DNA of 64,000 nt from Escherichia coli. Lineage in GTDB: Bacteria > Pseudomonadota > Gammaproteobacteria > Enterobacterales > Enterobacteriaceae. Below, one piece after another: positions 1,173 through 13,005 of the stretch; position 1 is the first letter of the stretch; each line of letters opens with the position of its first letter. The position numbers and the translations under genes were made by a program. The stretch lies in NCBI RefSeq assembly GCF_003334815.1, contig NZ_QOWO01000020.1. One strand, written 5' to 3'. Under the pieces are notes generated by a model. It worked only from the letters and a program-made list of their open reading frames with translations. It was not told the origin of the DNA and did not search any database.

Positions 1173-2198
1173 TCAGGAATGTAGCGCTGGATGCGCGACA
1201 AAAGGTGTTTTCTGTTTGTGTTTTTTCTCCTGATACATCGCAATATCGGCAGCATGCAGGGCACTGTCTGCATCGGTTGTTTCAGGATCGACTTCTACTA
1301 TGCCAAGACTGGCACCGGGATAATACAAATCAACATCACCTAAGTGATATTCTCCACGTATTTGCTGCTGAATGCGTTCTCGCAGCGACGAAATATCCGC
1401 ATTCTCGTTGTTTAGTGAAACAACTAAAAACTCATCACCGCCGAGACGACCAATAACTTCGCCATTTTGCTGGAGCGTATTAAGGCGCTCGCCAACCTGA
1501 ATGAGAAACAGATCGCCACTATTATGACCAAAACGATCATTGATTAATTTGAAGTTATCCAGATCGATAAACGCGATCATTATCTTATGGTTAAGATGCC
1601 GGGCGAGGGAAAACAGTGTCGTCAGATTTTCAAAAATCGCCCGCCGATTCGGTAGCCCGGTTAACGAGTCGGTATACGATTGCGCAATCAGCGCAGCATT
1701 GGCTTCGCGCAGCTGTTCAACCAGTGCCTCTTTTTGAATATATTGTGCAATCAGTCCGGCGAATAACTGTAAAACCTGTTCCGCGCGTTCACTCCACTGG
1801 CGCTTCTCACTGCTGGCGGCGCAAAGCGTGCCATAGAATGATCCATCCGGTAAGTGAATTGGCGTGCTCAGAAATGTGGTGATGCCAAGATTGCGTGCCG
1901 CAATACAGTCACCCCAACGGTCGGGGACTTCATCGCTGAAAAAGCAGTTTTCATCAATGGCGCGTTTGCATAACGAGTAATCCCACGAGACGGTAAAATT
2001 CTCCGGGATGTACATTTTCTGGCTGTTACGGGCAAACATAATATGCTGCAGGCGCGCTTCGACATCCACTTTGGTCAGGTAGGTTGATTCCATATCAGTG
2101 ACCATTTCCAGCATCTCCAGAAGCTGTCGGACCAGACTTTCCAGTGACTGTTCTTTGGCAAGGGATTGCGAGACGCGGGCGATAATCTGATCTGACAC
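1173..2198 (-). CDS. yeaP: diguanylate cyclase, GAF-GGDEF (DgcP), 341 aa with GTG start
   Basis: ORF 1173..2327 contains RLGGDEF; start trimmed to GTG at 2196-2198 to match remembered 341 aa protein (MSDQIIARV...). Confidence 0.85.
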   Translation of the reverse strand: MSDQIIARVSQSLAKEQSLESLVRQLLEMLEMVTDMESTYLTKVDVEARLQHIMFARNSQKMYIPENFTVSWDYSLCKRAIDENCFFSDEVPDRWGDCIAARNLGITTFLSTPIHLPDGSFYGTLCAASSEKRQWSERAEQVLQLFAGLIAQYIQKEALVEQLREANAALIAQSYTDSLTGLPNRRAIFENLTTLFSLARHLNHKIMIAFIDLDNFKLINDRFGHNSGDLFLIQVGERLNTLQQNGEVIGRLGGDEFLVVSLNNENADISSLRERIQQQIRGEYHLGDVDLYYPGASLGIVEVDPETTDADSALHAADIAMYQEKKHKQKTPFVAHPALHS

Positions 2199-5158: not shown

Positions 5159-5561
5159 GCGGCCCAACCGGTACGCCGCGAAACAGCGCTACGCCTAAAA
5201 CAGTGCCTACCAGCAGCCCGGCGACCAGTTGCGGCTGGCTGCCCATTAACGTCACGCCGCGCCCACCCAGCCAGGAGACAATCACGCCTACTGCAATCGC
5301 CACCAGTGATTTCCAGTTCAGAAACGAGTGAATCAAGGTTGAGGGCGGTAGCGTCCCGCTGGCGATGGGGGCCATAACGCCAATCGTCAGAATGATTATC
5401 CCGATACTTAGCCCCTGTTTTTCAATCCACGGAAAAAAGGTGCTTAACGGTGTGACGCGGACAATGATTAACACCAGAATTGAAACGGCGACAGTGGTGT
5501 TATGACTGATAAAGCCCAGCGCAGCTAACCCGAGCAGGATCAGCAAAGTGACATCAAACAT
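5115..5561 (-). CDS. yeaL: DUF441 inner membrane protein YeaL
   Basis: ORF track 148 aa, highly hydrophobic; 3' end overlaps yeaM convergently by 44 nt. Confidence 0.8.
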
Positions 5562-5730
5562 CGTGGTTTCCTTGCCAAAAAATAATAAGCCTGCTTACTT
5601 TACGCTTGCTGCAGGAAGGAAGTAGAAAATCTTTACGTTTTTTGCATAAAAAATCAGGCGAACTGTCATCAAACTGCCATTTGTGCACGCTAACAATAAC
5701 GTGAAAACAGCTATCTCCCGGGGGCATGCT

Positions 5731-5835
5731 ATGAACGATCAAATGTTTGTCGAGACACTGATTATCACGTCATCGTTTTTTGCCATTGCTGTTGTACTGG
5801 TTTTGTCCGTTCTTCTTATCGAACGGACCGGCTAG
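5731..5835 (+). CDS. yoaI: small membrane protein YoaI, 34 aa ([34 protein letters not shown])
   Basis: manual translation; below ORF-track cutoff. Confidence 0.6.
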
Positions 5836-6339
5836 TTACGCAGTGCGGCGGAAATTGACCAGTTCTGGTTGCGCAATGCGCAAATAATCCGCGGTTTTCA
5901 AAATAACGGATTTATCCAGCATGCCTGCATTGAAGGCGATTTCATCAAATCGTTCGAAGAGTAGAGGGTCGGCAACCAGTTTGAGTTTTGGATGGAAGCT
6001 GAAAGGGGGGATCGCGCCGAAGACACAGCCTGTGAGTTCATCGACTTCCGCCGGGCTGGCCAACGAAGCGCGTAATCCGCCTATATGGCTGGCGAGTTGG
6101 CTCAGATCGGCCTGTTGATCGGCTGCGAGGATCGCCAGAACATGTTGATTTACGCCATTGCCTTTGACTTTACATACCAGTGCCTTAGCACCCTGGCCTA
6201 GAGCGGTGCCACGAATTTCTGACACCGCTTCACATTTACCTACCGCTTCATGGGTAACGACGCGGAAGTCAGCACCTTCTTGTGATAATAAAGCGATTAA
6301 CCGCTGATGCGTCACGCTTCCTTTAGCCATTTCAGTCAT
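5836..6339 (-). CDS. yeaK: YbaK/ProX-type aminoacyl-tRNA deacylase YeaK
   Basis: ORF track 167 aa. Confidence 0.85.
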   Translation of the reverse strand: MTEMAKGSVTHQRLIALLSQEGADFRVVTHEAVGKCEAVSEIRGTALGQGAKALVCKVKGNGVNQHVLAILAADQQADLSQLASHIGGLRASLASPAEVDELTGCVFGAIPPFSFHPKLKLVADPLLFERFDEIAFNAGMLDKSVILKTADYLRIAQPELVNFRRTA

Positions 6340-6381
6340 TTCACGCTCCTGAGATTACAAGCAAACAACCACAGAAGGTTA

Positions 6382-7872
6382 TCATGAACGGCTGTTTTTG
6401 TTCTGCTTATTGACATATAAACGCTCATCGGAAGCTTTATACGCATCATGTAACGTATCGTTTTCTTTCATCGCGTAAATACCGGAAGAGAAGCCGATCT
6501 CTTTCTGCGGCGCGATATGTTGCAGACGTTTTTCGATACGTTCAGGCAGTTGTGCTGCAATTTGCGGCGTCGAATCGACAAGAATGATGCAGAATTCATC
6601 GCCACCGAGTCGGATGGCATAATCACTTTTACGAATCGACTGTTTAATCGCCTGAGCTAATAACGTAATCGCTAAATCCCCCTCCTGATGACCGAGGGTG
6701 TCATTTATTTGCTTTAACTTGTCCATGTCAATAGCAATAAACATCACCGAAGAACCGGATTGCACCAGTTTCTGCAACCGCTGCTCCAGTTCAGGGGTTA
6801 AAATTTTGCGATTATACAGTCCAGTCATCGCATCACTAATATTTTCTCGCGACACATTTTGGTATAAACGGAAGTGCATCCGCACCATATTCAGCAAAAT
6901 TAACGCCGTCAAAATCCAGAACAGAACGCTTTTCCACGAAGACGTGATAAAGTAAAGAATATCAATGGATAACGAGACACGAATGCCGCCCGGTAAGTCA
7001 TGGACGTAACTGACATACTGGAACAGATTATCTTCGCTCTGGTTGATGATAATGTCGCGCCCCGAATCGGTATCGGTTAGCGTGACATTGAGAAAACGCC
7101 AGAGGAGAGGGCGGTCATGAGTATAAAAGATATTCCGCAGATTGTTTTTGTTAATATCCAGCAGCACAATCCCTTTTAGCTGCCCTGCGACATATACCGG
7201 CGTCAGCAAACTCATCACGTTCTGTTTAGTACGCTGATCCTGGTAAATGCTCGACAATACGGTACGCCCGGTAAATACCTTTTCAATATCTTTGCGATCG
7301 ATGCCAATACTTCCTGACTGCAGGAAGGACCAGTTATTCATCGCAAAGTATTCAACATTAACCGGCTCATAAAAATAGACATAGCGGTCATTGAGATCGA
7401 GATAATAGTGAAATTTCTCTTCGGCCATCCCAAGACCTGAACCGTAATCATCCTGGTGGCGGTTGCCTTCCACTGCCTGATCAAAAGCGGGTAATAGTGC
7501 TGCAGCTTCCACAATTGTGTCGCAGTCAGTGGATGCGGTTTGTAGTGTGCCGCGTAAGCCCGGGTATTTATGGGCAGTCAGGTTTAAGCCATGGGTGTTA
7601 TTGGCAGACTCAAAAGCCTCGCAGATGGCGCGCCGCTGTTCTGGCGACACTTCCGACTGCTCAGCAGCGAGAGCGCGCATCACATGCGCGGCAATACTCT
7701 GATTCTGATACTTATCATAAAGAAAGGAGGAGTCTGCTTTCTGCACGATATAGCGCAGATAGGCACTCATTGCTCTGTCGCTGGCGACAAGTTCAAAAAT
7801 AAGGAAGGAAGATGTCAGCACAATGACACTTGCGGCGATAAAATGCCGGAGCATTCTATGGTGCAATTTCAT
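6382..7872 (-). CDS. yeaJ: membrane diguanylate cyclase DgcJ, intact GGDEF, 496 aa
   Basis: ORF 6382..8052 contains RLGGDEF; start set at internal Met (MKLHHRMLRHF...). Confidence 0.85.
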   Translation of the reverse strand: MKLHHRMLRHFIAASVIVLTSSFLIFELVASDRAMSAYLRYIVQKADSSFLYDKYQNQSIAAHVMRALAAEQSEVSPEQRRAICEAFESANNTHGLNLTAHKYPGLRGTLQTASTDCDTIVEAAALLPAFDQAVEGNRHQDDYGSGLGMAEEKFHYYLDLNDRYVYFYEPVNVEYFAMNNWSFLQSGSIGIDRKDIEKVFTGRTVLSSIYQDQRTKQNVMSLLTPVYVAGQLKGIVLLDINKNNLRNIFYTHDRPLLWRFLNVTLTDTDSGRDIIINQSEDNLFQYVSYVHDLPGGIRVSLSIDILYFITSSWKSVLFWILTALILLNMVRMHFRLYQNVSRENISDAMTGLYNRKILTPELEQRLQKLVQSGSSVMFIAIDMDKLKQINDTLGHQEGDLAITLLAQAIKQSIRKSDYAIRLGGDEFCIILVDSTPQIAAQLPERIEKRLQHIAPQKEIGFSSGIYAMKENDTLHDAYKASDERLYVNKQNKNSRS

Positions 7873-8052
7873 GATAAATGGCACTCCTTCGGTTAGTGAA
7901 ACGAGAAAACCAGATAAAGTTCGATTGCGGCCTGGCACAGGGGCGCTAATTATACTCATCTCTGCGCCGCTGGGGAGGGGAAATTTAGGGGTAATAGTAA
8001 TAAATTGTATGCAAAAGCCACGCAAAAAGCATGGCTCTGAATATTTTTGCAC

Positions 8053-9528
8053 TTAAATATGATGAATAATCACTTTGTTGCCCCCCTCGCTTTTCGCTTC
8101 GCGTAAGGCTTTATCTGCTTCCGTCATGACAAGCGAGATATTACGCGTGTCACCCGTTGAAAAAACCGTGCCAATACTGATGGTCATTTGTTCAGGAACA
8201 TCATATCTGTTACTAAAGCCGGTCAGGAGTTCGACATTTTTACGCATACGTTCCGCAATGATTTTTGCCTGGGCACTATTGAGTTCGGTAAATAGCAAGC
8301 CAAACACCTCACCCTCCAGTCGCGCTAAAATATCATCGGGGCGGATGCTTTGCTGGATAATATCGACAATTGAAACCAGCACTTTATCACCCACACGATG
8401 TCCCCATTGGGCATTGATGCGTTTGAACTGATTAATATCAACCAGCATGACACAGAAGTCCTTAACAACAGGTCGCGACAATAATGACTCTACGCTGTTG
8501 AAAAAGTAGCGCCGATTATAAATATTGGTCAGCACATCATGAACTGCCAGTTTGCTGGAGAGTTGCAGCTCCTGAAAAATGTTATAAATCAGAAAAGACA
8601 CAACAAACAGTTTACTGGAAACTTCAATCCCGCGACTGATATACCAGATAGTATAATTATACTCATCCAGAGTCAGTAGAAGTAAGTTGCAGCATAGCGA
8701 TGCCAGACATAATAATGCTATTAACGGCCATAGTTCGCTGGCTAATCGTGTGCGCATGATAATAAAGAACAGTAAAAATGCCCACAGACAAACCAATATT
8801 TTTGTATAGTTGATTCCCCAGGTCGCAGTATGGTTGTCCGGACAGTAATCGACGACATACAAAGAATAGTCAGCGTTATAACTGCTCAGATTGTGTGCCA
8901 GAAGGGGAAAAACTAAAAAAGGGATCAGCGCCAGCAACAGGATTCCCGTTTTTTTCTTATTGTTGTCAAGGATGTTGTCTTTTCCATAACAAAAGAGCGC
9001 CAGCGAGGTTAAACAAATAAAACTGAGTTGGCGGAAAATATAGAAAATAGAAACATCATTCGACTTTGTCTGGATCAGTGTACTGCCGTTAATTGGTTTA
9101 TGGATAATTACAATGGTTTCAACTAAATAGATAAGGCCACTTAAAAATGCAAGGCTTAAAATGAGTGTTGGTAAAATTTGTTTGTTAGTGAAATATTTCA
9201 TTAACATGAAAAGAAAAATGACGGCGTTAAGGAAAAACAAAGCCACAACAACCATCAGGTAATTCATCTGTGGGATGAGTTTTACATTTGTGTTTTCGTT
9301 ATATAAGGTAGTAATGCAAAATAAAATTAACGTCAGCAATAAACTGAAAATAAAAAAGCTTTGAGCTTTTAATTTTTGTGTACCCATAGAAACCATAAAA
9401 AGGAGAGCAATGTGAGTGCTGGATTTTATTGATGGCAGAGATATATAGTTTTGACCAGGATCAATTTTCGTTAACGATAAAAAATATTTAAAGAATAACC
9501 CCATGGAAATACGTGTTGACTGAATCAT
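8053..9528 (-). CDS. yeaI: membrane GGDEF-domain protein with degenerate active site EGEVF
   Basis: ORF track 491 aa; motif ARLEGEVFGLLF sits where GGDEF is expected. Confidence 0.85.
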   Translation of the reverse strand: MIQSTRISMGLFFKYFLSLTKIDPGQNYISLPSIKSSTHIALLFMVSMGTQKLKAQSFFIFSLLLTLILFCITTLYNENTNVKLIPQMNYLMVVVALFFLNAVIFLFMLMKYFTNKQILPTLILSLAFLSGLIYLVETIVIIHKPINGSTLIQTKSNDVSIFYIFRQLSFICLTSLALFCYGKDNILDNNKKKTGILLLALIPFLVFPLLAHNLSSYNADYSLYVVDYCPDNHTATWGINYTKILVCLWAFLLFFIIMRTRLASELWPLIALLCLASLCCNLLLLTLDEYNYTIWYISRGIEVSSKLFVVSFLIYNIFQELQLSSKLAVHDVLTNIYNRRYFFNSVESLLSRPVVKDFCVMLVDINQFKRINAQWGHRVGDKVLVSIVDIIQQSIRPDDILARLEGEVFGLLFTELNSAQAKIIAERMRKNVELLTGFSNRYDVPEQMTISIGTVFSTGDTRNISLVMTEADKALREAKSEGGNKVIIHHI

Positions 9529-9674
9529 TTTTCCGAATGATTGTTTTCTGGAACTAAATTATGTAAAGGTTATGCTGTCATATTTAAAGCGATTGTAAGC
9601 TAATGTATGTAATAAATGAGATAATTTACAGTAAGCTAAAAATCAGCCAGGCGATAATGACCTGGCTGATAGTT

Positions 9675-10970
<1,296 letters not shown>

Positions 10971-11070
10971 CTACATTTGCCAACTGTATGCTACGCCTGT
11001 GTTGCCGCTTCTCAGGCCCACGGTTCGCTGTCGTTGTAGGCCCGGTAACATGTGTACCGGGCCAGGGTTG

Positions 11071-13005
11071 TTAAGACGATTTACGTACGCGCAAATACCA
11101 TTCGCACAGTAAACGCACCTGTTTACGGGTGTAGCCTTTTTCCATCATACGGTCGACAAAGTCGTCGTGTTTCTTCTGCTCGTCGGTTGACGTTTTGGCG
11201 TTAAACGAGATAACCGGCAACAGCTCCTCGGTATTGGAGAACATTTTCTTCTCGATGACCGTGCGCAGTTTTTCATAGCTGGTCCAGTTCGGATTGCGTC
11301 CGCTGTTATTCGCTCTGGCGCGCAGTACGAAGTTAACAATCTCGTTGCGGAAATCTTTTGGATTACTGATCCCCGCCGGTTTCTCGATTTTCTCCAGCTC
11401 GGCGTTAAGAGACTCGCGGTCAAACAGCTGCCCGGTATCCGGATCGCGATACTCCTGATCCTGAATCCAGAAATCCGCGTAGGTAACATAACGGTCGAAA
11501 ATGTTTTGCCCATATTCGGAATAGGATTCAAGGTAGGCCGTCTGGATCTCTTTGCCGATAAACTCGGCATATTTCGGGATCAGATAACCTTTCAGGAACT
11601 CCAGATAGCGTTCTGCCTGCTCTTGTGGGAACTGCTCGCGCTCAATCTGCTGTTCCAGGACGTAGAACAGATGGACCGGGTTTGCTGCCACTTCTACATG
11701 ATCGAAGTTGAACACGCGGGAGAGGATCTTAAACGCAAAACGCGTCGACAGACCGTTCATCCCTTCATCGACACCGGCGTAGTCACGATATTCCTGATAC
11801 GACTTGGCTTTGGGATCGGTGTCTTTCAGACTTTCGCCATCATAAACCCGCATCTTTGAATAAATGCTGGAGTTTTCTGGCTCTTTCAGGCGCGAAAGAA
11901 TGGAAAAACGTGACAGTGTTTCGAGCGTGCCAGGGGCGCATGGGGCGTGAGTCAATTCACTGTGATTAAGCAATTTCTCGTAGATTTTGATCTCTTCGGA
12001 AATGCGCAAGCAATACGGCACCTTCACGATGTAAACACGATCGAGGAAGGCTTCGTTGTTTTTGTTATTACGGAAAGTGACCCATTCGGACTCGTTCGAG
12101 TGTGCGAGAATAATCCCGTTGAACGGCAGGGCGGAGATACCTTCCGTCCCGTTGTAGTTACCTTCCTGAGTGGCGGTTAACAAGGGATGCAGCACTTTAA
12201 TCGGTGCTTTAAACATCTCAACGAATTCCATGATCCCCTGATTGGCGCGGCACAGCGCACCGGAATAGCCGTAGGCGTCCGGGTCATTCTGCGCGTAGTG
12301 TTCGAGTTTACGAATATCGACTTTCCCAACCAGCGCGGAGATGTCCTGGTTGTTCTCATCGCCGGGTTCCGTTTTGGCGATAGCAATTTGTTGCAGAATT
12401 GACGGCCAGACCTTCACTACCCGGAACTTAGTGATATCGCCACCAAATTCATGCAGGCGTTTTGCCGCCCACGGCGACATGATGGTGCCGAGATAACGGC
12501 GAGGAATGCCATACTCTTTTTCCAGAATCTGCGCATCTTCCTGCGGATTGAAAAGACAGAACGGATGATCGTTGACCGGGCTACGCTCACCGTTCGCGCT
12601 CAATACATAAATCGGTACGAGCTGCATTAATGATTTCAGTCGCTCAGCAAGCGATGATTTACCCCCACCCACAGGCCCCAGCAGATACAGGATTTGTTTC
12701 TTCTCTTCCAGCCCCTGAGCCGCGTGTTTCAGATAAGAGACAATCTGTTCAATCGCGTCTTCCATGCCGTAAAACTCTTCAAACGCCGGATAACGTGCAA
12801 TGACCCGGTTAGAAAAGAGTCGAGAAAGTCTGGGTTCCTGGGCTGTATCGACCATGACAGGCTCACCGATAGCCATCAATAGCCGCTCAGCCGCGTTGGC
12901 ATAAGCACTGCGATCTTGCCGACAAGTGGTAAGAAACTCCTGCAGTGTGAACTCTTCGTCCTTGGCAGCTTCATATCGCTGGCGATAGTGATCGAATATA
13001 TTCAT
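11071..13005 (-). CDS. yeaG: PrkA-family serine protein kinase YeaG
   Basis: ORF track 644 aa; Walker A-like LLGPVGGGKSS. Confidence 0.9.
   Translation of the reverse strand: MNIFDHYRQRYEAAKDEEFTLQEFLTTCRQDRSAYANAAERLLMAIGEPVMVDTAQEPRLSRLFSNRVIARYPAFEEFYGMEDAIEQIVSYLKHAAQGLEEKKQILYLLGPVGGGKSSLAERLKSLMQLVPIYVLSANGERSPVNDHPFCLFNPQEDAQILEKEYGIPRRYLGTIMSPWAAKRLHEFGGDITKFRVVKVWPSILQQIAIAKTEPGDENNQDISALVGKVDIRKLEHYAQNDPDAYGYSGALCRANQGIMEFVEMFKAPIKVLHPLLTATQEGNYNGTEGISALPFNGIILAHSNESEWVTFRNNKNNEAFLDRVYIVKVPYCLRISEEIKIYEKLLNHSELTHAPCAPGTLETLSRFSILSRLKEPENSSIYSKMRVYDGESLKDTDPKAKSYQEYRDYAGVDEGMNGLSTRFAFKILSRVFNFDHVEVAANPVHLFYVLEQQIEREQFPQEQAERYLEFLKGYLIPKYAEFIGKEIQTAYLESYSEYGQNIFDRYVTYADFWIQDQEYRDPDTGQLFDRESLNAELEKIEKPAGISNPKDFRNEIVNFVLRARANNSGRNPNWTSYEKLRTVIEKKMFSNTEELLPVISFNAKTSTDEQKKHDDFVDRMMEKGYTRKQVRLLCEWYLRVRKSS

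Follow-up and report, generated by a model that had tools for sequence, protein, structure and literature searches.

CdgI of Escherichia coli as a probable MASE4 pseudo-cyclase encoded next to, and not duplicated from, the diguanylate cyclase DgcJ, with a possible FNR-type promoter inside the annotated cdgI reading frame

The use of an inactive GGDEF fold in an effector role, with c-di-GMP bound at an RxxD motif, is known from PopA of Caulobacter and PelD of Pseudomonas. For CdgI (YeaI) of Escherichia coli, a degenerate A-site together with an intact I-site has been reported, and the purified GGDEF domain was found to bind c-di-GMP (Sarenko et al. 2017, mBio, Fig. S4B; PMC5635695). The same study described strong heteromeric GGDEF contacts made by this domain, toxicity upon overproduction, and CdgI protein levels below detection in standard cultures. 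Deletion phenotypes of cdgI have been reported, older genetic papers handle YeaI as an active cyclase, and a later description is that of a catalytically non-functional protein (PMC10459773). The product of the neighboring gene, DgcJ (YeaJ), is an active diguanylate cyclase, studied also as a GGAAF mutant, that interacts with the glycosyltransferase NfrB, supplies it locally with c-di-GMP and is required for infection by phage N4 (PMC8669469, PMC8669472); the sensor domain of Salmonella YeaJ binds AI-2 (PMC9637222).

The DNA analyzed here was a 64,000-nucleotide stretch of an E. coli contig (NZ_QOWO01000020.1), hereafter the window. The region of interest corresponds to a locus of E. coli K-12 that has been studied extensively, that of cdgI (yeaI) and dgcJ (yeaJ); the 5 kb compared (5413-10413) were 100% identical to strain MG1655, and of 5426 complete E. 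coli genomes 5420 carried the locus. An earlier note on this DNA had pointed to EGEVF in YeaI at the site where GGDEF is expected, which both the translation and an alignment to PleD bore out, and had proposed a non-catalytic role for YeaI, either as a receptor for c-di-GMP or as a regulator, in agreement with the published experiments (PMC5635695) and with the residue mapping and comparative data given below. That YeaI is related to diguanylate cyclases but inactive, and that it binds c-di-GMP, is already known: the degeneration of its motif, the preserved I-site and the binding of c-di-GMP were published in 2017, and the reference annotation includes them. The cyclases DgcJ and DgcP have been characterized as well; the observation was correct but ordinary, and matters little. 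Being a matter of gene content, it calls for no test against chance. Coordinates of all features are collected in Table 1.

Table 1. Features of the cdgI–dgcJ region and of dgcP, in window coordinates.
Feature	Position	Strand	Basis or remark
dgcP (yeaP), GAF + GGDEF	1173..2198	-	profile matches, translation; 341 aa
A-site GGDEF of DgcP	1428-1442	-	translation
dgcJ (yeaJ, b1786)	6382..7872	-	ORF list, NF040885; 496 aa from MKLHHR + stop
GGDEF domain of DgcJ, residues 346-494	6391..6837	-	Pfam E 6e-40; PleD alignment
I-site RKSD of DgcJ	6622-6633	-	translation, PleD alignment
Periplasmic GAPES1 (dCache-like) sensor of DgcJ, residues 31-304	6961..7782	-	Pfam PF17155, E 7.8e-151
GATGAGTATAATTA with perfect TATAAT, candidate dgcJ -10 region	7947..7960	-	75-88 nt upstream of dgcJ ATG
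Hairpin directly 3' of cdgI stop codon, likely cdgI terminator	8009..8052	-	dG -19.1 kcal/mol, z -4.5
cdgI (yeaI, b1785), K-12 annotation	8053..9528	-	ORF list; 491 aa + stop
cdgI as probably translated	8053..9396	-	ortholog starts; M45 or M48
Degenerate GGDEF domain of CdgI, residues 328-485	8074..8547	-	Pfam PF00990, E 1.3e-44
Degenerate A-site EGEVF of CdgI, residues 405-409 (RLEGEVF)	8302..8316	-	translation; aligns to PleD G368-F372
Intact I-site RPDD of CdgI (R396xxD399)	8332..8343	-	translation; aligns to PleD R359/D362
MASE4 multi-pass membrane domain of CdgI, residues 88-319	8572..9267	-	Pfam PF17158, E 1.4e-48
Candidate -10 hexamer TAAAAT	9423..9428	-	conserved; 22 nt after FNR box
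FNR-type box TTGATCCTGGTCAA, inside annotated cdgI N-terminus	9451..9464	-	motif match + conservation
Terminator-like hairpin after yeaH, upstream of cdgI	9642..9670	-	11-bp stem then T run

DgcJ scored 747.7 bits against the NCBIfam equivalog NF040885 (cut-off 500) and is thereby a member of that family. Its A-site reads RLGGDEF in the translation, as previously noted, with GGDEF at residues 423-427 (window positions 6592-6606). The catalytic glutamate is present as E426 but N493 occupies the position of PleD R446; the enzyme is nonetheless active according to the literature. The ligand residues Y168, Y210, D212 and D239 are present in its GAPES1 domain, which is flanked by the only two hydrophobic segments of the protein as judged by hydropathy (about residues 8-29 and 309-334). 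The hydropathy profile of the CdgI MASE4 region gave about 7-8 such segments, so that the multi-pass N-terminal membrane domain earlier ascribed to both proteins holds for CdgI and has to be replaced, for DgcJ, by two helices around GAPES1. The third cyclase, yeaP (dgcP), does encode an intact GAF-GGDEF protein (GGDEF domain Pfam E 6e-41), separated from the end of dgcJ by 4.2 kb rather than 5 kb; it has QNGE in place of an RxxD I-site.

The two adjacent genes had also been regarded as tandem paralogs, a view that we could not sustain. Pairwise identity of the GGDEF domains was 28% for CdgI and DgcJ, 27% for CdgI and DgcP and 28% for DgcJ and DgcP, and CdgI is accordingly no closer to its neighbor than to DgcP. 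Profile matches placed the N-terminal domains of CdgI and DgcJ in unrelated families (CdgI being a member of the MASE4 family PF17158, to which DgcJ gave no match), leaving the GGDEF superfamily domain as their sole shared part, and against NF040885 CdgI reached 66.4 bits and DgcP 84 bits, neither being a member. The nearest relatives of CdgI are MASE4-GGDEF proteins. The GGDEF identities together with the NF040885 score rule out a tandem duplication, and that cdgI and dgcJ are not duplicates is one of the modest additions made here.

Residues of CdgI were mapped by alignment to PleD, the sequence of which was verified against PDB. The GGDEF fold is intact, because CdgI matched PF00990 over its full length (model positions 1-161 of 161), and TIGR00254 gave 123 bits (cut-off 37.4). 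The active-cyclase signature GG(D/E)EF, found at the A-sites of DgcJ and DgcP, is absent from CdgI, in which five catalytic positions are lost in the alignment (PleD numbering: G368E, E371V, R446G, D329N and D336A, corresponding to E405, V408, G483, N366 and A373). The I-site positions R396, D399 and R427, equivalent to PleD R359, D362 and R390, are kept, with the RxxD located five residues upstream of the A-site, and the metal- and guanine-binding positions D364, K369, N372, H377, D381, E407 and K479 are retained. With its A-site residues lost and RxxD kept, CdgI is expected to be unable to synthesize c-di-GMP and to bind it through the I-site, the binding as such being published; it would be a pseudo-cyclase on a structurally intact GGDEF fold.

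The account that we consider highly probable is thus one of two independently transcribed membrane GGDEF genes, with DgcJ being an active cyclase and CdgI a MASE4 pseudo-cyclase that did not arise as a duplicate of dgcJ. In DgcJ, the periplasmic GAPES1/dCache sensor between two membrane helices would control the cytoplasmic GGDEF domain. In CdgI, MASE4 is fused to a GGDEF fold devoid of the first glycine, the catalytic glutamate and a phosphate-binding arginine, and signaling may proceed through c-di-GMP-dependent heteromeric GGDEF–GGDEF contacts with other GGDEF proteins, an output mechanism derived from two-hybrid data with isolated domains.

Comparison with orthologs indicated how this state came about. 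Positional orthologs in Citrobacter, located between yeaH and a GAPES1-GGDEF gene, carry GGEEF, DIDHFKRIND and GRN, and sequence comparison indicates that the ancestor of CdgI was an active MASE4-GGEEF cyclase, which some Citrobacter still have at this chromosomal position. As the Citrobacter ortholog at this position is intact, the inactivation probably arose in the clade that contains Escherichia. Within this degenerate clade the A-site appears as EGEVF, EGEEF, EGNVF, EGDVF, DGEVF or EGKRF, while the RxxD is kept in all sequences except that of one Escherichia species representative (L010), having HPDD for RPDD; it was invariant in 15 MASE4-GGDEF homologs. Two degenerate orthologs with 77% and 64% identity (P0012 and P0018, respectively) are known from metagenomes only. 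Intact E. coli cdgI alleles had dN/dS values of 0.07-0.12. Truncated alleles without a GGDEF domain are frequent among database proteins, and truncated alleles of 281, 295 and 345 aa represent hundreds of sequences; IS1 insertions and deletions also occur in the locus. A faster evolution specific to cdgI turned out to be only partly true, with E. coli–Citrobacter amino acid identities of 57-62% for cdgI and 63% for the likewise fast dgcJ, compared to 98% for yeaG, 94% for yeaH and 86% for yeaK, although the GGDEF domain of CdgI is somewhat faster (dN 0.33-0.36) than that of DgcJ (0.23-0.25). The GC content of cdgI is low (38.5% for the gene and 35.7% for its MASE4 part, versus 49.6% for the window), but a recent horizontal acquisition was rejected because syntenic orthologs, from Citrobacter and from metagenomes, have an equally low GC content (36-39%) and share the yeaH-X-yeaJ context. 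The Citrobacter and E. coli orthologs make a natural active/inactive pair for back-mutation experiments.

Signals for separate transcription were found on both sides of cdgI. The hairpin after yeaH had a folding energy of -25.9 kcal/mol (z -7.5), and the stem of the hairpin following cdgI is kept through compensatory changes in a diverged locus (L005), in the otherwise diverged intergenic region of which TGAGTATAATTA is also conserved. With hairpins flanking cdgI and a conserved -10 element upstream of dgcJ, the two genes appear to be separate transcription units. An exact second copy of GATGAGTATAATTA is found inside cdgI, at 8654-8667. An anaerobic sigma-70/AppY site near 8640-8690 is likewise intragenic.

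The start of cdgI itself is probably annotated wrongly, with the first 44 annotated codons being non-coding. Orthologs begin at M45 (ATG at 9396, giving 447 aa) or at M48 (ATG at 9387, 444 aa), of which M48 is conserved more widely; in other Escherichia the upstream 44 codons have ATT or TTG replacing ATG, or in-frame stops, and in three E. coli comparisons they showed 7 nonsynonymous and 0 synonymous differences. The translation-initiation context of cdgI is weak. This upstream segment contains an FNR-type box, matching the consensus at 9/10 positions in Escherichia and 10/10 in Citrobacter, that is conserved in 14 orthologous loci, with a perfect TTGAT-N4-ATCAA in the four from Citrobacter. 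The motif CATCAATA(A/G)AATCC is near-invariant across cdgI orthologs, and the candidate TAAAAT would predict a transcription start near 9416, or about 1870497 in MG1655, which would center the FNR box at -41.5. The window contained 6 matches at 9/10 positions, compared to an expectation of 2.9, and the box taken alone was dropped as evidence, since such a match frequency is not significant by itself; for this reason the argument for an FNR promoter rests on cross-genus conservation and on the published FNR ChIP-seq/ChIP-chip peak with a predicted site 'Within yeaI' (Myers 2013, Tables S5 and S6). In glucose minimal medium no FNR-dependent change in cdgI expression was seen, yeaI was not among the genes listed in a Shigella anaerobiosis/FNR RNA-seq supplement, and our literature search found no paper linking cdgI to anaerobic induction.

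Based on these elements we tentatively suggest, giving it somewhat less than even credence, that cdgI has a class II FNR promoter inside the annotated open reading frame, a start at M45 or M48 and an expression requiring anoxia together with a co-factor, for instance AppY, so that CdgI would be a c-di-GMP sensor specific to oxygen limitation that was derived from an active MASE4 cyclase in the Escherichia-containing clade. If this is so, past work on cdgI may have relied on an incorrect start and on unsuitable conditions. A conserved, FNR-bound promoter within the first 44 codons could explain why expression went undetected with reporter fusions and in aerobic cultures, and makes anoxia and AppY candidate conditions for examining CdgI function.

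Three other explanations for CdgI were weighed. One of them is that what remains of the A-site pocket senses GTP, in the way of other degenerate GGDEF domains to which GTP binds allosterically; this could complement the binding of c-di-GMP at the I-site or take its place. The equivalents of the guanine- and metal-binding PleD residues D327, K332, N335, H340, D344 and K442 are indeed unchanged in all five sequences of the degenerate clade that were aligned to PleD (apart from an arginine for K332 in one), down to 64% overall identity. These residues may, however, be conserved for fold stability, two lineages have N or K at E370, the R446 equivalent is missing, the published activity is binding of c-di-GMP (PMC5635695) and no report of GTP binding by CdgI was found in the literature searched; we think GTP sensing unlikely. 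A diguanylate cyclase activity that is weak or conditional, persisting in spite of EGEVF and letting CdgI act by raising c-di-GMP, would agree with the retained metal- and guanine-binding positions, with the natural variant EGEEF that keeps both glutamates, and with genetic work in which the yeaI biofilm defect of CFT073 was complemented by the heterologous cyclase WspR in no-salt LB and YeaI was listed among cyclases with "verified" activity (Spurbeck 2012). A paper on RstA also cites YeaI as raising c-di-GMP, and Sanchez-Torres 2011 is cited as having shown this. Against such activity speaks the replacement of the first glycine, the catalytic glutamate and the R446 equivalent alike. Moreover, motif positions 3 (E/N/D/K) and 4 (V/E/R) vary freely in orthologs, which would be unexpected in a working active site, WspR failed to complement in glycerol minimal medium, and later specialist papers class CdgI as inactive (PMC5635695, PMC10459773). 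An in vitro cyclase assay of CdgI was not found in the accessible papers searched, and a full-text literature search for 'EGEVF' gave no match. Taken together, we find residual cyclase activity quite improbable. That cdgI is instead a decaying gene without function, the silent remnant of a former cyclase, would suit the undetectable protein (PMC5635695), the truncated alleles, the IS1 insertions and deletions and the weak initiation context, but we hold it to be very improbable indeed given the low dN/dS of intact alleles, the full-length GGDEF match, an I-site that stays nearly invariant while the A-site drifts, promoter elements conserved across genera, the near-universal presence of the locus in complete genomes and the reported deletion phenotypes.

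Considered as a pseudo-cyclase with an intact I-site, the CdgI of this window is the same gene as cdgI/yeaI of K-12 (b1785 in the Hengge nomenclature; Sarenko 2017), identical in sequence and with A-site, I-site and MASE4 as published; the protein is the same, except that we argue that the 44 annotated N-terminal residues are probably untranslated. The second gene encodes DgcJ itself, the GAPES1/dCache and GGDEF protein of E. coli and Salmonella defined by NF040885, with A- and I-sites intact. CdgI shares its two-domain architecture with the MASE4-GGDEF cyclases DgcT (YcdT) and DgcX and with the syntenic Citrobacter ortholog, of which the latter occupies the same yeaH-X-yeaJ position at 57-63% identity, but whereas these proteins keep GGEEF, DxD, IND and GRN, CdgI has EGEVF, DIN, INA and GGN. 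With regards to PopA and PelD, finally, CdgI may be seen as the same type of degenerate GGDEF receptor making use of its I-site, although the N-terminal domains and outputs differ.

The genes around the pair of GGDEF-protein genes cdgI (yeaI, b1785) and dgcJ (yeaJ, b1786) were, in order, gapA, yeaD, yeaE, mipA, yeaG, yeaH, the pair itself, yeaK, yoaI, yeaL, nimR, nimT, yeaO, yoaF and the third such gene, dgcP (yeaP), whose annotated ORF begins with GTG. Over the 5 kb compared (window 5413-10413) the sequence was identical to NC_000913.3, with window position x converted as MG1655 position 1870385 + (9528 - x), and of 5426 complete E. coli genomes 5420 contained the cdgI-dgcJ locus. The mechanical ORF list runs the dgcJ frame further, to a GTG at 8052, and the 496-aa model used here begins MKLHHR.

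Features of the cdgI-dgcJ locus, in window coordinates.
Feature	Position	Strand	Remark
Strong hairpin 3' of yeaH	9670..9642	minus	dG -25.9, z -7.5
cdgI	8053..9528	minus	ORF list, 491 aa
FNR-type box	9464..9451	minus	conserved from Citrobacter to Escherichia
Candidate -10 hexamer of cdgI	9423-9428	minus	conserved, 22 nt after FNR-type box
Hairpin 3' of cdgI stop	within 8052..8009	minus	dG -19.1, z -4.5
dgcJ	6382..7872	minus	ORF list, 496 aa counted from MKLHHR

The core observation of the earlier note on the active-site motifs was correct, with EGEVF at the GGDEF position of CdgI (residues 405-409, window 8302-8316), an intact motif in DgcJ (residues 423-427, window 6592-6606) and an intact GAF-GGDEF architecture in DgcP (1173..2198; GGDEF at residues 253-257, with the GAF domain ahead), the Pfam GGDEF domain being full-length in all three proteins. 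Its details on membrane domains and paralogy were wrong. The multi-pass membrane domain that it had ascribed to both neighbours is present in CdgI (MASE4, residues 88-319, with 7-8 hydrophobic segments) and absent from DgcJ, in which two hydrophobic segments enclose a periplasmic GAPES1 domain of 274 residues (E 8e-151). Nor are the two genes tandem paralogs, as their products align over the GGDEF domain only, at 28% identity; the corresponding values were 27% for CdgI/DgcP and 28% for DgcJ/DgcP, and a homolog search gave 34-40% between CdgI and GGDEF domains from unrelated bacteria. With the NCBIfam DgcJ equivalog (cut-off 500 bits) DgcJ passed at 748 bits and CdgI scored 66 bits.

That YeaI is a non-catalytic c-di-GMP receptor or regulator, as the note had proposed, is right and already known, having been published in 2017 and being present in the reference annotation. 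According to Sarenko et al. (2017, PMC5635695), K-12 has a single stand-alone GGDEF protein that is degenerate, namely CdgI, whose active site (A-site) is degenerate and whose RxxD c-di-GMP-binding site (I-site) is intact. They reported c-di-GMP binding by its purified GGDEF domain, which also forms strong heteromeric contacts with those of other proteins, and noted an N-terminal domain shared with DgcT and DgcX; CdgI could not be detected in standard cultures, and its overproduction was toxic. Cimdins-Ahne et al. (2023, PMC10459773) termed it catalytically non-functional. Older data conflict with this. In the table of Spurbeck et al. (2012) the motif reads KNAHDREGEVF, yet YeaI is counted among verified cyclases, and they observed WspR complementation in one medium and not in another; the cyclase assignment was repeated in the RstA paper. 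As for DgcJ, its catalytic activity is needed for NfrB-dependent infection by phage N4 and it binds NfrB directly; its dCache-like sensor domain has the ligand residues Y168, Y210, D212 and D239 (PMC8669469, PMC8669472), all confirmed in the window sequence, and the sensor domain of the Salmonella ortholog binds AI-2 (PMC9637222).

The PleD GGDEF sequence, checked against the PDB, was aligned with CdgI, its orthologs, DgcJ and DgcP. In K-12 CdgI five PleD residues are lost, namely G368 (E405), the catalytic E371 (V408), R446 (G483), D329 (N366) and D336 (A373). Kept are D327, K332, N335, H340, D344, E370 and K442 (CdgI D364, K369, N372, H377, D381, E407 and K479), together with the I-site residues R359, D362 and R390 (R396, D399 and R427). 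DgcJ has every A-site and I-site residue except at the PleD R446 position, where its C-terminus (window 6391-6400 region) reads NKQNKNSRS, with N493, in E. coli and has R in the Citrobacter-type ortholog; despite N493, E. coli DgcJ is an active cyclase (PMC8669469, PMC8669472). DgcP, unlike CdgI and DgcJ, combines an intact A-site with the absence of the RxxD I-site (QNGE there).

The homolog search further yielded a graded series of MASE4-GGDEF proteins, represented in a 15-sequence alignment. The degenerate clade comprises E. coli, E. albertii, E. whittamii, representatives of other Escherichia species and two metagenomic lineages (77% and 64% identity); throughout it the first glycine is replaced by E or D, the A-site reads EGEVF, EGEEF, EGNVF, EGDVF, DGEVF or EGKRF, and GGN stands where others have GRN. 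The closest intact relatives, at 57-63% identity, are those of Citrobacter sp. Awk 4, NCU1 and R56 and of one metagenomic contig, which carry GGEEF, DIDHFKRIND and GRN. In the three Citrobacter-type loci examined the gene lies between yeaH and the GAPES1-GGDEF gene with neighbours as in E. coli, and the degenerate ortholog at 77% identity is placed likewise. By this shared synteny CdgI is positionally orthologous to a cyclase that looks active, and its adjacency to dgcJ predates the inactivation. Between E. coli and two of these loci (L002, L003) the CdgI and DgcJ proteins are 57-63% identical, and the flanking YeaG, YeaH and YeaK 86-98% (window 5836-13005). cdgI is AT-rich in every ortholog (36-39% GC).

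The first 44 codons of annotated K-12 cdgI (window 9397-9528, minus) do not behave as coding. Three E. coli comparisons gave 7 nonsynonymous and 0 synonymous differences there, against 9 and 48, respectively, in the remainder of the gene. The annotated ATG is replaced by ATT in E. coli PA8 and by TTG in E. whittamii, in-frame stops lie upstream of M45 (ATG at 9396) in E. coli E69, SCPM-O-B-8794 and E. albertii, and neither L005, a diverged locus, nor the Citrobacter loci have the upstream frame open. The annotated start of many orthologs falls at M45, that of the Citrobacter proteins at the equivalent of M48 (ATG at 9387). For K-12 we infer a mis-annotated start.

When 14 orthologous upstream regions were aligned, the DNA of this segment proved conserved, with an FNR-type box of constant half-sites and variable spacer, TTGAT-N4-GTCAA in all Escherichia and L005 and a perfect TTGAT-N4-ATCAA in all four Citrobacter loci. 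It is followed by a near-invariant CATCAATA(A/G)AATCC containing the candidate -10 hexamer, TAAAAT or TAGAAT; a transcription start predicted 7 nt past the hexamer (window about 9416) places the box centre at -41.5, where class II FNR promoters have it. As 9-of-10 FNR matches are not rare by chance (6 found in the window, 2.9 expected), conservation carries the evidence. Myers et al. (2013) reported an FNR ChIP-seq/ChIP-chip peak at yeaI that coincides with this box, giving TTGATCCTGGTCAA as the predicted site and labelling it "Within yeaI" (Tables S5, S6), and higher anaerobic sigma-70 occupancy there (Table S2). In glucose minimal medium they saw no change in yeaI expression that depended on FNR, and they listed no transcription start for it (Table S9). 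We likewise infer that the cdgI promoter is internal to the annotated ORF and that expression would require oxygen limitation together with a further factor. About 70 nt upstream of the box, and upstream of the annotated ATG, ATCATTCGGAAAAA (window about 9531-9545, minus) is kept in every upstream region of Escherichia and Citrobacter, in Citrobacter without a start codon after it; it may be another regulator site, and its GGA could be a CsrA target.

Among other regulators, AppY overproduction raised cdgI RNA 34-fold (log2 5.1), and SrsR and RstA are reported to act on cdgI too. The published AppY ChIP summit (MG1655 1871229, window 8684) and a sigma-70 peak that climbs strongly without oxygen, from 15.6 to 408, map within cdgI at about 8639-8684. 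Adjoining both is GATGAGTATAATTA (8654-8667, minus; perfect TATAAT, codons LDEYNY), a 14-mer of which an exact second copy lies upstream of dgcJ at 7947-7960, also minus (0.04 copies expected by chance). Because of the hairpins after yeaH and cdgI, the stem of the latter being kept by compensatory changes in L005, and of TGAGTATAATTA, located 75-88 nt upstream of the dgcJ ATG and also conserved in L005, cdgI and dgcJ look like separate transcription units, in agreement with the published pattern of a silent cdgI and an expressed dgcJ.

Alleles lacking the GGDEF domain (P0013, P0019 and P0023, of 345, 295 and 281 aa) represent hundreds of database sequences. IS1 insertions and deletions were also seen in the locus, the complete genome of strain p10A having two IS1 copies within cdgI, and the literature records a cdgI-dgcJ' deletion as well as IS1 within dgcJ in certain stocks of MG1655; cdgI therefore appears dispensable in some lineages. 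Among intact E. coli alleles dN/dS was 0.07-0.12 for cdgI and 0.05-0.07 for dgcJ. The I-site RxxD was invariant across the 15-sequence alignment, and the sole I-site change seen was HPDD for RPDD in the 98% identical ortholog of Escherichia sp. MOD1-EC7003. Purifying selection over the full protein, together with a drifting A-site and a stable I-site, is what a c-di-GMP-binding pseudo-enzyme would be expected to show.
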